Below are positions 50,492 through 64,000 of a stretch of DNA of 64,000 bases, one piece after another. A program made the translations under genes and the position numbers. The stretch is from Candidatus Poriferisocius sp. (lineage in GTDB: Bacteria > Actinomycetota > Acidimicrobiia > Acidimicrobiales > Bin134): the NCBI RefSeq assembly GCF_965208355.1, contig NZ_CBDBOM010000003.1:1297339-1361338 (forward strand), written 5' to 3'. The first letter of the stretch is position 1. Each line of letters starts with the position of its first letter. The notes beneath the pieces are model-generated. The model was not told the DNA's origin. It worked only from the letters and a program-made list of their open reading frames with translations, and ran no database searches.

Positions 50492-51355
50492 CTAGTCCAG
50501 TTCCAGCATCTGGTCGACAACCGCGGCCATAGCAGAAGCGTCGCGCTCGACCTCCCGGGTCTGGCCACCGGCGTCGAGGAAGCGCTGCATCAGCGGCACG
50601 TGCTGTCCGGTAGCGGAGCAGGCCATCATTGCCTGGGTCTCGGTCAGAAGTCCGGGCTCCACTGGTCCGAGGGCAGCATCCACGGCTTGCTTGGCCTTGG
50701 CAATGGACAACCGCGGCGATGCGGCGATGCGGCGGGCCACCTGGGCGGTGTGGGCCCGAAGCTCATCGGAGGGCAGCACCCGGTTGACGTAGCCGATGGC
50801 CGCAGCCTCCTCGGCGGTCACGTCGTTGCCTGATAGCACAATCTCCAGAGCCCGGCTGCGACCCACGAGGCGGGCCAAGCGCTGGGTACCGCTGGCCCCG
50901 GGAATGATGCCCATGGCCACCTCTGGCTGGCCCAACACAGTGCGAGGTCCAGCGAAACGCATGTCGAGCGACAGCAGGAACTCCGATCCGCCACCCCGGG
51001 CGACGCCATCGATCATGCCGATGGTGGCCACCGCCATGGTGCGACACCGGTCAAAGGTGGCCGCGGCCACATTGGGCTCGGCCGGCACATCGGCTGGAGC
51101 CTCCATGGCCAGGATCTGCTCTACGTCTCCGTGCATCAAGAAAAACTCTGAATCAGCGCTCTCAAACACCAGCACGCTGACCTGATCGCCTACTTCGTTG
51201 GCAGCTTCGACCGCGTTCAGCAAGCCGATCAACCCGCCAATCAACGCTCCGTCCACGAGTTGCTTGGGTGGATGGTCGATCACCACCCAGCCGATGCCGT
51301 TGTCAACGGTCATCGTGAAGGGTCCAAAGCTCTGCTCACTCGCCTGTTCAGTCAT
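50492..51355 (-). CDS. Enoyl-CoA hydratase/isomerase family protein
   Basis: Crotonase fold (VIDHPP.., ARGGGSEFLLSLDMRFA). Start at MTEQAS overlaps the upstream stop by 8 nt. Confidence 0.7.
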   Translation of the reverse strand: MTEQASEQSFGPFTMTVDNGIGWVVIDHPPKQLVDGALIGGLIGLLNAVEAANEVGDQVSVLVFESADSEFFLMHGDVEQILAMEAPADVPAEPNVAAATFDRCRTMAVATIGMIDGVARGGGSEFLLSLDMRFAGPRTVLGQPEVAMGIIPGASGTQRLARLVGRSRALEIVLSGNDVTAEEAAAIGYVNRVLPSDELRAHTAQVARRIAASPRLSIAKAKQAVDAALGPVEPGLLTETQAMMACSATGQHVPLMQRFLDAGGQTREVERDASAMAAVVDQMLELD

Positions 51356-51965
51356 GTTGGTCCTCCCACTGGTTCCAATAGGCAACTTCAGAGACTGGCC
51401 GGCGGCGAACCGGGCCGAAGGGCACCGCGGGCCAGCCCATGGGGATGCCGCACACGATGCGGATGTCGTTTGGTATGCCGAGTACCTCTCGCACCTCGTC
51501 GGCCCGGAAGGTGTGCAGCGTGGTCAGAACCGTGCCCAATCCCAGGCTGCGAGCCGCCACCAGGAGATTCTGCACCGCGGGGAAAATCGAGTGGCTCACT
51601 CCCCGCTGTGTGGAGCACACGATGATGAGCACCGGCACGTCGCCAATCTCGCGGGCAAACTTGGCCGCTTTCTCGACGATCGCGGCCTCTTGGTTACGCA
51701 GCCACTCTGTGCCGGCCGCGGCTGGGTTGTTGTAGGCCTCTTCCTGGGCATCGAGGTACAGCTCGCCCAACCGACGGCGCTTCTCAGGATCGGTGACCAC
51801 CACGAAGCGGGCGAACTGGCCATTGATGGCGCTGGGGGCCCGGATAGCGGCATCCAGCACCTGGGTGACCAACTCGTCGGGCACCGGGTCGGTCCGATAG
51901 CGCCGGATTGCCCGTTGGGTGTGCATGGCCTCGAACACGCCGACTTCGGCGGTTGCTTGGTTCAT
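51348..51965 (-). CDS. Nitroreductase-family protein
   Basis: HTQRAIRRYRTDPVPDELV..VLDAAIRAPSAINGQ pattern. Start set at MNQATAE (51965). The longer track ORF is an unlikely extension. Confidence 0.7.
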   Translation of the reverse strand: MNQATAEVGVFEAMHTQRAIRRYRTDPVPDELVTQVLDAAIRAPSAINGQFARFVVVTDPEKRRRLGELYLDAQEEAYNNPAAAGTEWLRNQEAAIVEKAAKFAREIGDVPVLIIVCSTQRGVSHSIFPAVQNLLVAARSLGLGTVLTTLHTFRADEVREVLGIPNDIRIVCGIPMGWPAVPFGPVRRRPVSEVAYWNQWEDQHD

Positions 51966-52031
51966 GGGCGCAGAGAGTAGCGGGCGCTGAAATGAATAGG
52001 CTGCCCATGCTCTCGGCGGTAGCCTGCACCC

Positions 52032-52304
52032 ATGGCGCAAAAGCACCGCATCACCATCACCTATTGAGTTCCTTGAGACTATTCCGAGCACGCCGTGAGC
52101 GCTGCCAAGGACCTTCTTCAGAACTACCAGCACATCATTGAGGATCTGACCCTGGTGACTGGTGCGTCGGGCATATTCGACGTGGAAGTCGACGGTGAGA
52201 TGCTCTATTCCAAGTACGCCACCGACTGCCACGCCGACACCGGCGAGGTGCTCAAGCTGTTTGCCGAGCAATACGCCCAAGGAGTGCTTGTCTACGGCTC
52301 ATAA
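52032..52304 (+). CDS. Rdx (SelW/SelT/SelH-like) redox protein with two in-frame TGA codons at the CxxC position; candidate U-x-x-U selenoprotein, 90 aa
   Basis: Same frame as track ORF 52095-52304. Upstream it reads ATG GCG CAA AAG CAC CGC ATC ACC ATC ACC TAT TGA GTT CCT TGA GAC TAT..., giving MAQKHRITITY-U-VP-U-DYSEHAVSAAKDLL...LVTGASGIFDVEVDGEMLYSK. TGAs lie at 52065-52067 and 52074-52076. The frame opens after TAG at 52020-52022. Confidence 0.6.
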
Positions 52305-52327
52305 CCGCTGAGCCAATCTAGGCAGGC

Positions 52328-53611
52328 TTGATTGCCTACGCTACGGGGGTGGATCCCGAGCCAGCAGATGTCACTGTAGATATCGACCACCAAACCCCGG
52401 AGTTCGTCGCCAATCGCCACAGCCGCTACCACGAGCTGCGAGAGCGCTGCCCGGTGGTGTTCAACGAGCACTACGGCGGGTTCTGGATGGTCACCGACTA
52501 CGAGTCGGTGGCCCAAGTAGCCCGAGACAACGAGACGTTCGCCCACAAGTACGAGCCCGATGCCCCCGACGGCATCTCCTACCAAGGCATCTGCGGCGTT
52601 CCCCGACCCGGTTATATCCCCCGCCAGGGAGTATCCGAGATCGACGGGCCCGAACATGCCGACCTGCGGCGGGTGCTGAACCCCCTTATGACCATCAACG
52701 CGGTCGAGAGCAATCGCCCCCGCATGGAAGCGGTGTCGGCCTGGTTTATCGACGAGATCATCGAGTCGGGTAAAGCCGACTTGGTGCTCGACTACACCAC
52801 CCCGGTGCCCGCCGTGTTGACGCTCGAGATGATGGGCATGGTGTCATCCAACTGGCAGCACTACGCCGACTTCTTCCACGCCACGTCGTCGTATGAGCCC
52901 ACCGACGAGCGGTACCGGAGCGCGATCACCCACCAACCGGAGATGTGGGCTGAGCTCAGGGACTTCGCCGGGTTCCGCCGGGAGAACCCGGCCGACGACG
53001 TCACCACTGCCTTGGTTTCGTCCCCACTCGACGGGCGGATGTTGAGCGACGACGAGGTCACCGCCATCATGTGGAACCTGGTGGCCGGAGGCCTCGACAC
53101 CACGACGGCGCTGGTGTCGTGGGGCCTGCACCACCTGGGATCCCACCCCGAGGACCGTGCCCGGCTCATCGAAGATCCCAGCCTTATTCCCGTCGCGGTG
53201 GAGGAGTTCCTCCGCTTCTACAGTCCTAGCGAAACCCTCACCCGTACCGCCTCCCGCGATGTTGAGCTGGGCGGCCGCAAGATCCGCCAAGGCGACATTG
53301 TGCTCATCAGCTGGGTGACGGCCAACCACGATCCGGCCGTGTTCGACGACCCCGGCAAGATTCGCATCGACCGCGCGGCCAACAAGCATTTGGCATTCGG
53401 GCTGGGCGGCCACCGCTGTATCGGTTCGTCGATCGCCCGCATCGAGTCGGAGCTGATGCTGAGGGACGTGTTGGCCCGCATGGGCGACTACGAGATCGAC
53501 CCCTACGGATTTATGCCCTATCCCGGCAACCTGCTATTGACCGGCGTGGTGTCGATGCCGGCCACCTTCACGCCTGGCACGCGCTCAGGGGCAGCCGACC
53601 CGTTCGCCTAA
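52328..53611 (+). CDS. Cytochrome P450
   Basis: Heme-binding FGLGGHRCIGSSIA, I-helix AGGLDTT, EXXR (EEFLRF). The start (TTG 52328 or GTG shortly downstream) is uncertain. Confidence 0.88.
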   Translation: MIAYATGVDPEPADVTVDIDHQTPEFVANRHSRYHELRERCPVVFNEHYGGFWMVTDYESVAQVARDNETFAHKYEPDAPDGISYQGICGVPRPGYIPRQGVSEIDGPEHADLRRVLNPLMTINAVESNRPRMEAVSAWFIDEIIESGKADLVLDYTTPVPAVLTLEMMGMVSSNWQHYADFFHATSSYEPTDERYRSAITHQPEMWAELRDFAGFRRENPADDVTTALVSSPLDGRMLSDDEVTAIMWNLVAGGLDTTTALVSWGLHHLGSHPEDRARLIEDPSLIPVAVEEFLRFYSPSETLTRTASRDVELGGRKIRQGDIVLISWVTANHDPAVFDDPGKIRIDRAANKHLAFGLGGHRCIGSSIARIESELMLRDVLARMGDYEIDPYGFMPYPGNLLLTGVVSMPATFTPGTRSGAADPFA

Positions 53612-62021: not shown

Positions 62022-62492
62022 ATGCTCAGCGAAGGCACGAATGCTCCGGAGTTCACCGCCCCCGACCAGGACGGCAATGATCTGTCGCTGGCCGATTTGA
62101 GGGGCAATTGGGTGGCCTTTTGGTGGTACCCCAAGGCGTCCACCAAGGGTTGAACCATCCAGGGAAGGGGATTCCGTGATCGAATCTCCGAGTTTGAGGC
62201 TCTTGGGGCTGTGGTAGTGGGGGCGTCGTTCGACTCAGTTGAGGATCAGAGGGGCTTTGTGGACGGCGAGAGCTTTCCGTTTGCCCTGATTTCCGATCCC
62301 GACCGAGCCGTGGGGCGGGCCTACGACGCCGAGCGGGCCGAGGGTGAGGCCTACTACGAGCACGGTTTGCCCCGCCGGATCAGCTATCTGATTTCACCTG
62401 ATGGCACCGTGGCCAAGGCTTATGACCTTGAGGGCCAAGACCTGGGCCAGCACGCTGCCGAGATCATCGCGGATATCAAGGCGTTGAGCTAG
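62022..62492 (+). CDS. Bcp/PrxQ-type peroxiredoxin with in-frame TGA at the peroxidatic Cys position; candidate selenoprotein, 156 aa
   Basis: ATG 62022 is in frame with track ORF 62211-62492. My translation is MLSEGTNAPEFTAPDQDGNDLSLADLRGNWVAFWWYPKASTKG-U-TIQGRGFRDRISEFEALGAVVVGASFD... The TGA at 62151-62153 replaces the C of the Prx motif YPKxxTxGCT. Confidence 0.7.
62167..62189 (+). promoter_or_regulatory. Candidate bacterial SECIS hairpin downstream of the Prx UGA
   Basis: 8-bp stem GGGGAUUC/GAAUCUCC (one G-U pair), 7-nt loop CGUGAUC containing GU. The stem starts 13 nt after the UGA. Confidence 0.45.
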
Positions 62493-63504: not shown

Positions 63505-64000
63505 TCAGTCCCAGCAACGGCCTTTGTTGTCATCGCGAAGTCCACACGCATGATTGAGCCCGGCGGAAAGAGCGATAAAGCGGTCGCCGGGAGGATCGAC
63601 AACTCCGCCGCGGCCCCAACACCGAACGGTCTGGTCGTCGCGGATGCCGCAGGTGAAGCCGGCACCGGCAGCGATGGCGGTGTAGATGCTGAGCGGGGGA
63701 TCGGCCTGCCCATCGCTGTTGTCGCCCCAGCATTGGGCGATGCCGTCGTTGCCCAGGCCGCACGCGTGGGAAGAGCCGACCGTGATCGCGCTGAAAAGGT
63801 TCTCAGGAGGAGTCTCCCAGCCGTCTCCGCCCCAGCACACCGCAGTGCCGTCGCCTCGCAGCCCGCAAGAGGCCGGACCCCAGCCCACGGAGACGGCGGC
63901 GAAAGCGCCTTCGGGGGGCGGTGGAGGATCGGGGCCTCCCATGACATTGCCCCAGCACTGAAGGGAGCCGCTGTTGCGTATGCCGCACGACTGGCTCGCG
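63505..64000 (-). CDS. RCC1-repeat protein, C-terminal part; the gene continues past the right edge
   Basis: At least four blade units ending in CWG (SCGIRNSGSLQCWG, SCGLRGDGTAVCWG, ACGLGNDGIAQCWG, TCGIRDDQTVRCWG). The frame stays open up to position 64000. Confidence 0.7.
   Translation of the reverse strand, partial: ASQSCGIRNSGSLQCWGNVMGGPDPPPPPEGAFAAVSVGWGPASCGLRGDGTAVCWGGDGWETPPENLFSAITVGSSHACGLGNDGIAQCWGDNSDGQADPPLSIYTAIAAGAGFTCGIRDDQTVRCWGRGGVVDPPGDRFIALSAGLNHACGLRDDNKGRCWD

Follow-up and report, generated by a model that had tools for sequence, protein, structure and literature searches.

SelW-like proteins of the Rdx family are among the most abundant marine selenoproteins, and their bacterial members have been given as CxxU proteins, i.e., with one selenocysteine (Sec, U), in the 2008 Global Ocean Sampling (GOS) study and in reviews of 2022 and 2026. 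Sec insertion in bacteria needs a hairpin, the selenocysteine insertion sequence (SECIS), whose distance from the UGA codon is short and fixed. The serving of two UGAs that lie 9 nucleotides (nt) apart has been a topic so far for SelL alone and, since 2026, for hydrogenases. The prokaryotic UxxU proteins that have been catalogued are Prx-like/SelL, a MerA-like metal-binding protein, and an FmdB-family protein, to which group 4 [NiFeSe] hydrogenases were added in 2026 (PMC13582414). Here, we report a SelW-like gene in which both positions of the redox motif are UGA (UGA1 and UGA2), located at 52032–52304 on the + strand of a 64,000-nt stretch of DNA (the window) from Candidatus Poriferisocius sp. 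(contig NZ_CBDBOM010000003.1, positions 1,297,339 to 1,361,338). We regard it as highly probable that this is a real selenoprotein gene in which at least UGA2 is read as Sec; with somewhat less confidence, we consider it probable that Sec is inserted at UGA1 as well, giving a UxxU protein. No report of a bacterial Rdx/SelW-like UxxU protein was found in the literature, and no selenoprotein analysis of Poriferisocius was found either, the genus being mentioned only in passing; the UxxU protein is most likely a new form of a protein family that is known in bacteria only with one Sec. An initial annotation of the window, made from its letters, had called a bacterial SelW-like UxxU protein unusual, in agreement with the 2022 and 2026 catalogues, which give CxxU only, and had taken Sec insertion as the simplest reading, for which support now comes from a series of homologues, from selection on the gene, from a conserved hairpin, and from a second selenoprotein gene.

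The full-length gene starts with ATG at 52032 and, apart from two internal stops, both of them TGA, its frame is open as far as the TAA at 52302–52304. The translation reads MAQKHRITITY-TGA-VP-TGA-DYSEHAVSAAKDLLQNYQHIIEDLTLVTGASGIFDVEVDGEMLYSKYATDCHADTGEVLKLFAEQYAQGVLVYGS followed by the terminal stop, i.e., 90 codons including the two UGAs (MAQKHRITITY-U-VP-U-DYSEHAVSAAK...VYGS), which is the same otherwise intact frame that the initial annotation had read from this ATG. UGA1 (codon 12, 52065–52067) and UGA2 (codon 15, 52074–52076) are separated by GTT CCT, so that TGA GTT CCT TGA at 52065–52076 holds two Sec-type codons two codons apart. The open reading frame (ORF) finder reports at this locus the stretch from GTG 52095 to 52304 alone (+ strand), the same 69-amino acid (aa) ORF that gene callers report, which represents the C-terminal three quarters of the domain (two thirds in the estimate of the initial annotation, which had rightly recognized it as the C-terminal part of an Rdx protein) and is without the β1 strand and the redox motif.

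For profile and structure comparisons, Cys was written at both UGAs of the 90-aa product. Its score against the Pfam Rdx model (PF10262) is 58.2 bits at a cut-off of 22.6, covering profile positions 1–71 of 74, compared with 32.8 bits and positions 20–71 only for the 69-aa ORF. With the NCBIfam model TIGR02174 (CXXU_selWTH, i.e., SelT/SelW/SelH) the 90-aa product reaches 40.7 bits vs the cut-off of 34.2, and the 69-aa ORF falls below it (19.7). The product belongs to the Rdx family (PF10262/TIGR02174). A phmmer search of the Protein Data Bank (PDB) gave six Rdx-family chains, 3DEX, 2FA8, 2OJL, 2OKA, 2OBK, and human C17orf37, with E values from 1.6e-6 to 1.2e-3. In the printed phmmer alignments, residues 12 and 15 align with both Cys of Y-C-T-Q-C in 3DEX, 2FA8, and 2OJL, and I-T-I-T-Y-UGA-V-P-UGA is aligned with I-E-Y-C-T-Q-C (3DEX) and I-R-Y-C-T-Q-C (2FA8), the motif following directly after the first β strand. 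UGA1 is therefore found at the first and UGA2 at the second position of a CxxC-type motif, and the earlier placement of both TGAs on the redox positions stands. These matches to solved Rdx chains suggest that the product would adopt the thioredoxin-like β-α-β-β-β-α Rdx fold.

A homologue scan over one genome per GTDB species, with the 69-aa part as the query, returned 80 loci, and the sequence upstream of each was read in frame. The 26 best loci (L001–L026; 79–97% identical) come from metagenome-assembled genomes (MAGs) labelled Acidimicrobiia, Acidimicrobiales, Candidatus Poriferisocius, or marine group Sva0996, many of them complete chromosomes of 3.3–4.1 Mb, and all 26 carry the pair, in the form ITITY-TGA-GT(T/C)-CCT-TGA-(D/N)(Y/F)SEHA; together with the window, UxxU is found in 27 species. 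The next 13 loci (L027–L039) are CxxU, their first redox codon being TGC and their second TGA, with TGC-GTC-CCT-TGA in the nearest outgroups; they include sponge-clade Acidimicrobiales (L028, L029, and L033) and also Ilumatobacteraceae, acIV, and one Chloroflexia MAG. C-x-x-TGA, the usual bacterial SelW-like form, occurs in Planctomycetota, Myxococcota, Proteobacteria, and other loci, and the second redox codon is TGA in most of the SelW-like loci from other phyla. UGA2 corresponds to the codon that ancestrally encodes Sec in the SelW-like CxxU proteins of bacteria, and UGA1, which is TGC in the outgroups, represents the derived state. In Cys-form loci the second position is TGC or TGT; CYDC or CWEC is present in a few MAGs of Actinomycetes, and the metagenomic protein P0021, a more distant homologue, is a full-length Cys form (CVPCDYSEH). 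The homologues form a motif series of CVPC (P0021), CVP-UGA (L027–L039), and UGA-VP-UGA (window and L001–L026), which is the pattern classically seen for selenoproteins, i.e., residues 12 and 15, the two positions at which the initial annotation had advised looking in homologues, are Cys or UGA.

Database proteins of this subfamily are nearly all 69 aa long, indicating that gene callers cut off the N terminus everywhere. The identical 69-aa product is found on at least 22 contigs of independent assemblies, both MAGs at NCBI and ENA metagenomes (with record names beginning ENGE20-1, ROBB21-1, and SHAF22-1), and the two TGAs are present in all six of the contigs with the identical product whose upstream sequence was read. 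Beyond the 26 related species, the pair was seen in 10 additional assemblies, made independently, of this strain or one nearly the same; a TGA pair at both Cys positions is thus far beyond chance. When the adjacent thiolase gene was used for a neighbor-joining tree, all UxxU genomes fell into one clade, outside which the CxxU genomes L028, L029, and L033 were placed. The simplest history that would fit these sequences is that TGC changed to TGA once, at the base of the clade, and that this TGA was kept across at least 27 species. A UxxU variant, MAQRHRIKITY-U-VP-U-NYSERAVSAAK, was also seen on an ENA contig (L252/L263; ERZ25069412, ctg810644_3x_l).

Within the UxxU clade, no part of the locus is more conserved than the segment upstream of the GTG, which the gene callers leave out: the mean pairwise nt difference is 0.053 from ATG to GTG (63 nt), 0.127 in the rest of the gene, and 0.327 in the 37 nt upstream. 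The ratio of nonsynonymous to synonymous differences (pN/pS, Nei-Gojobori-type) is 0.38 for codons 1–21 (pS 0.114) and 0.25 for codons 22–90 (pS 0.298), and 26 of the 27 sequences of the clade retain start codon and frame. Judged from these comparisons, the upstream segment is under purifying selection, unlike a decaying 5′ remnant. Frame-disrupted relatives had been named in the initial annotation as a finding that would speak against Sec; in the UxxU clade the frame is kept except for one TAA (L014, see below), and a remnant was seen only outside it. This frameshifted remnant of the same Rdx subfamily is in L040 (CAWCAF010000030.1), an unrelated Acidimicrobiales MAG, which indicates that the Rdx gene can be lost.

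A candidate bacterial SECIS with upper stem, loop, and lower stem is located at 52083–52111 (+ strand), proposed on a comparative and geometric basis. The upper stem of 6 base pairs (bp) is formed by GCACGC (52088–52093) and GCG-(C)-UGC (52099–52105), with C52102 bulged; the apical loop is CGUGA (52094–52098), with a G at the second loop position, and in the lower stem UCC (52083–52085) pairs with GGA (52109–52111). The minimum free energy (MFE) is −9.4 kcal/mol (52077–52115), and the same hairpin is predicted in every homologue. The bacterial SECIS (bSECIS) consensus has a loop of 3–9 nt whose two leading positions include a G, as a rule with G or U next, an upper stem of 4–16 bp, a UGA-to-loop distance of 16–37 nt, and an MFE of −7.5 kcal/mol or lower (PMC13188914). 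The predicted hairpin agrees with it in all four respects, with UGA-to-loop distances of 17 nt (UGA2) and 26 nt (UGA1). Counted from UGA2, its upper stem starts 11 nt downstream, and counted from UGA1, 20 nt downstream. In E. coli fdhF, the distance of the minimal SECIS from the UGA is 11 nt. The folding that the initial annotation had recommended thus yields a predicted hairpin compatible with SelB, i.e., with the bSECIS consensus, at 52083–52111, and this is the conserved element; the outer pairing of UCCUUG with CAAGGA that it had picked out by eye has to be given up, not being conserved outside the clade.

Several comparisons point to the importance of this hairpin. The synonymous-codon mismatch is 0.042 in codons 13–27 vs 0.221 in codons 28–90 (Mann-Whitney p = 0.0004), i.e., synonymous change is suppressed about five-fold from UGA1 to the end of the hairpin, and codons E19–S23 are synonymously frozen in 37 Acidimicrobiia sequences (the window and L001–L036), CxxU lineages included. 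In the RNAalifold consensus (lower stem and upper core), 96.7% of cells are paired, vs at most 49% for slid 3′ partners, and one lower-stem pair is changed on both sides in eight sequences, from CG to GC, AU, or GU. Two registers are used in the outer upper stem. The UxxU clade and L029 have A-U and a bulged C, and the other CxxU lineages and L252 have unbulged G-C, the two registers differing by a coupled A-to-G and U-to-G change; in L252, CAC to CGC together with GCT to GCG turns the bulged A-U form into an unbulged all-GC one, the helix being kept. Because the subgroups use different registers, fixed-register counts for the upper stem, made in two versions, give weak covariation statistics. 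In the CxxU outgroup L029 the hairpin sequence is identical to that of the UxxU clade, which indicates that the second UGA came without a new or altered signal. It is comparison, not thermodynamics, that backs the importance of this putative element. Another hairpin is predicted at about 52157–52191 (+ strand), under the TGASGIFDVEVDG coding part (−15 kcal/mol, z = −2.15 vs shuffles), beneath the most conserved protein motif.

Beyond the Rdx gene itself, an in-frame-TGA scan of the window found a second selenoprotein gene, encoding a BCP/PrxQ-type peroxiredoxin (62022–62492, + strand; Pfam AhpC-TSA, 107.8 bits), 10 kb from the Rdx gene. Its UGA (62151–62153) is located at the peroxidatic Cys, T-K-G-U, in the context WYPKASTKG-U-TIQGRGFRD, and T-x-x-U is a known peroxiredoxin selenoprotein type (selenoprotein catalogue). 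This TGA is conserved on the Rdx-bearing contigs and is shared by Myxococcota, Rhodospirillaceae, and Vicinamibacteria. Aligned Cys-form relatives have TGC there (L120, L121, L124, and L125); they come from Marinobacter, Solirubrobacteraceae, a MAG of Pirellulaceae, and a bacterial MAG that is unclassified. A SECIS-like hairpin (62167–62189; 8 bp, loop CGUGAUC, −10.2 kcal/mol) follows 13 nt after the TGA. Public gene calls split this gene into a 43-aa piece and an AhpC-TSA piece of 92 or 111 aa. When the window was scanned more widely for in-frame TGAs, no convincing selenoprotein candidate emerged beyond the Rdx and peroxiredoxin genes. We take the organism to use Sec because this second selenoprotein gene is on the same contigs. 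TGA also ends 23 of the 51 long coding-like ORFs of the window, including those of the neighbouring nitroreductase and thiolase genes, and, TGA being an ordinary stop, a reassigned genetic code is not the explanation.

Operons of selA and selB are present in other Acidimicrobiia, namely on contigs L222 and L225, which are among the matches listed (at least 120) for a degenerate DNA pattern of GDKLLGGPQAG, a universal SelA motif, and on L254, a chromosome of 4.16 Mb from ENA, where selA and selB abut and are followed by a WhiB gene and an NfeD gene. We do not assign L254 to the lineage of the window, the tetranucleotide correlation with the window being only 0.71, about the level of Ilumatobacteraceae. 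Several SelA homologues named L-seryl-tRNA(Sec) selenium transferase come from Acidimicrobiia MAGs, and the SelA pattern EIGG.[YF]RLP-13aa-GTTNRTR, derived by aligning 122 SelA sequences of Acidimicrobiia, is found in 120 of these 122 and in 1 of 117 others; among the best 120 of about 8000 protein matches to two Acidimicrobiia SelA queries, none is on a contig that matches a known Poriferisocius chromosome. In some Actinomycetes MAGs (L150 and L202), selD, selB, selA, and tRNA-Sec are found together. The selABCD genes have been reported in all 84 complete Actinomarina genomes (bioRxiv 10.64898/2026.04.03.716425). SelB and tRNA-Sec are presumably present in Poriferisocius genomes as well.

The Rdx gene is flanked by a divergent gene for a nitroreductase-family flavoprotein (51348–51965, − strand; Pfam PF00881, 96 bits) and by a cytochrome P450 gene (52328–53611, + strand, starting at TTG 52328 or GTG 52349; Pfam PF00067, 104 bits). 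The neighbours are as the initial annotation had described them, with its distance of 23 nt to the P450 gene becoming 23–44 nt depending on the start. The NCBIfam matches of the P450, the nitroreductase, and the peroxiredoxin are all below cut-off, and no specific names can be given from them. Enoyl-CoA hydratase and thiolase genes lie on either side of Rdx in the UxxU genomes and in the sponge CxxU ones alike; the nitroreductase and P450 genes flank it in the UxxU clade (L001–L026) only, and neither is there in the nearest CxxU loci (L028, L029, and L033). The second Sec and both redox genes are therefore co-distributed, and this is either functional or merely due to shared ancestry.

At 52020–52025 (+ strand), 6 nt upstream of ATG 52032, there is a −10-like TANNNT hexamer, TAGCCT, which is kept in the window and in 29 sponge-clade loci (L001–L026, L028, L029, and L033; variant TAGTCT in L026), with the intergenic sequence around it diverging otherwise. 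A TACGCT or TAGGCT hexamer is likewise found 6 nt before the GTG 52349 of the P450 gene (about 52337–52342), and no Shine-Dalgarno sequence is evident before the Rdx and P450 starts. In actinobacteria, −10 TANNNT boxes near the start codon mark leaderless mRNAs, and the sequence suggests that Rdx and P450 may be leaderless and transcribed separately; a scan of 51850–52450 for sigma-70 consensus and terminators found nothing. Some strains (L261–L263) have a gene for a PemK-type toxin with a small partner inserted between esterase genes about 5–8 kb upstream of Rdx, and L263 also has an acetyltransferase/TacA-like pair, i.e., the toxin-antitoxin content varies by strain. Toward the end of the window, an ORF at 63505–63942 (− strand) has a ...C-W-G... 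motif repeated every ~35 residues.

We propose that the ancestral state in Acidimicrobiia would have been CxxU, its single UGA served by a hairpin starting at the canonical 11 nt downstream, and that at the base of the sponge-associated Poriferisocius clade the first Cys codon may have changed from TGC to TGA, leaving the hairpin unaltered. SelB carrying Sec-tRNA(Sec) would then, on a hairpin 20 nt downstream, deliver Sec at UGA1 (codon 12), and three codons on, with UGA2 in the A site and the hairpin at the canonical 11 nt, a second SelB complex would deliver the second Sec, so that one hairpin could serve both UGAs and the product would be a 90-residue Rdx-fold protein with a U-V-P-U centre. 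Its two selenols, at the N terminus of helix α1, might close to a diselenide, and the U-x-x-U centre may be a very low-potential, highly nucleophilic redox pair; diselenides have a very low redox potential and are hard to reduce (PMC2397514). We infer the Sec at UGA1, the re-use of one SECIS, the formation of a diselenide, the function of the protein, and any link to the P450 and the nitroreductase. A broader proposal, which we put forward as distinctly unlikely when taken as a whole, would have UGA1 arise with the arrival of the nitroreductase and P450 genes, forming a selenium-dependent redox module of sponge symbionts in which the UxxU protein (a diselenide/diselenol couple of very low potential) would serve specifically the P450 or the flavoprotein, as its partner or protector, the early UGA1, at codon 12 of an mRNA that is probably leaderless, would act as a selenium gauge for the locus, and one SECIS would recruit SelB twice within three codons (at 20, then at 11 nt).

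Sec insertion at both UGAs has to be weighed against a number of observations that do not favor it. With E. coli SelA, SelB, and SelD as queries, tblastn gave no match in the window or in the first 80 loci, and ARAGORN gave no tRNA-Sec for the window or for any of the loci up to L125. Rfam, at a permissive threshold, gave no match to a SECIS or any other credible RNA in the window; the stability of the hairpin is not exceptional for its G+C-rich composition (z = −0.9), and formal covariation is thin because the sequences are nearly invariant. Shifting the minimal SECIS of E. coli fdhF off 11 nt sharply lowers Sec insertion, and UGA1 is at 20 nt. In one complete chromosome (L014, NZ_OZ244791.1), the Tyr codon 11 just before UGA1 is changed from TAT to TAA, the rest of the gene being intact; either the gene was inactivated recently in this species or the base call is wrong. 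Sec and Cys at UGA1 are, in addition, indistinguishable from present sequence data, and a tRNA is known, tRNA-ReC, that inserts Cys at SECIS-linked UGA and is enriched in UxxU-hydrogenase genomes (PMC13582414). The last point opens the way to mixed decoding, in which UGA2 would be read as Sec and UGA1 as Cys, or part Cys and part Sec, by a SelB-dependent tRNA of the tRNA-ReC/selC*-type, the protein would be functionally CxxU, and the TGC-to-TGA change would be nearly neutral. The enrichment of tRNA-ReC is significant, i.e., ~56% of UxxU-hydrogenase genomes vs 2.3% (PMC13582414), the SECIS unchanged when UGA1 arose means that there is no visible adaptation to a second Sec, and 20 nt is a non-canonical distance from the hairpin. 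Nevertheless, no tRNA of this type was seen in the window and the retrieved loci, a neutral change should revert or vary and yet TGA is invariant in 27 species, and the synonymous sites around UGA1 are unusually frozen. We consider mixed decoding unlikely.

The product might also be shorter, if UGA1 mostly terminates and yields an 11-residue peptide, or if the 69-aa product is made from GTG 52095, with the upstream part being a decaying remnant or a rarely passed selenium-dependent gate. It is this ORF that gene callers and databases report, two serial UGAs would multiply the inefficiency of Sec insertion, and L014 has an extra TAA. This reading is difficult to reconcile with an ATG-to-GTG segment that is the most conserved part of the locus, with its start and frame kept in 26 of 27 sequences and a pN/pS of 0.38, or with a 69-aa product that is without β1 and the whole redox motif; moreover, the −10-like box is located 6 nt before ATG 52032, not before the GTG. 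We hold termination at UGA1 to be very unlikely. A pseudogene or a sequencing artefact, i.e., two nonsense mutations or errors that fell on the Cys codons by accident, has nothing to speak for it beyond the stops themselves and the frameshifted remnant in the one unrelated MAG, L040; the same two TGAs are found in 26 species genomes, complete long-read chromosomes among them, and in 10 more assemblies, and the gene is under purifying selection, so that this explanation is effectively refuted and has hardly any probability left. Sec at UGA2, and probably also at UGA1, is the reading that we prefer.

The locus offers, within a single lineage, a natural series from CxxC through CxxU to the probable UxxU in which the SECIS is unchanged at the last step, with 27 species and several complete genomes to choose from, and the tiny protein should suit expression and mass spectrometry. 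The tolerance of SelB and SECIS to spacing, the choice between Sec and Cys (tRNA-ReC), and diselenide chemistry in an Rdx fold are directly testable here. Please note that every public assembly examined calls the Rdx gene as the 69-aa ORF and that several split the peroxiredoxin in two; with both genes miscalled, the selenoproteome of abundant sponge symbionts is under-reported.

The closest known system is the bacterial SelW-like CxxU protein, which is of the same family and size, has its UGA at the position of UGA2 with a SECIS 11 nt after it, and is represented by CxxU orthologues in sister Acidimicrobiia; the difference is that the first redox Cys here is also UGA. SelL, a Prx-like thiol:disulfide oxidoreductase of fish, invertebrates, and marine bacteria, likewise has two Sec two residues apart in a thioredoxin-fold redox motif. 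Shchedrina et al. are said to have proposed in 2007 that bacterial SelL uses one in-frame SECIS for both UGAs. SelL is found in aquatic organisms, and a diselenide has been reported for it (PMC2397514). SelL belongs, however, to another family (AhpC-TSA/Prx-like), and the protein described here matches Rdx/SelW models only in Pfam and NCBIfam; it is therefore not a SelL member, and the motif is analogous, not homologous. The same first-position change from Cys to Sec within the same family is known in eukaryotes, in the UxxU SELENOW of amphioxus and Ostreococcus lucimarinus (PMC7539508), where a SECIS in the 3′-UTR (untranslated region) serves any number of UGAs; in our locus, by contrast, the candidate SECIS is in the coding region and bound to a distance, and the two UGAs are 9 nt apart. 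In this respect the UXXU motif of group 4 [NiFeSe] hydrogenases is more similar, being bacterial, derived from CxxC/CxxU, and associated with a SECIS core common to the CxxU and UxxU types, and a single downstream SECIS has been proposed for both UGAs (PMC13582414). The two Sec residues of the hydrogenases are metal ligands in a large enzyme, whereas the Rdx motif is of the redox dithiol type. The hydrogenase study saw no clear stepwise path from CxxU to UxxU (PMC13582414); for the Rdx gene of Poriferisocius, CxxU sisters with an identical candidate SECIS are available.

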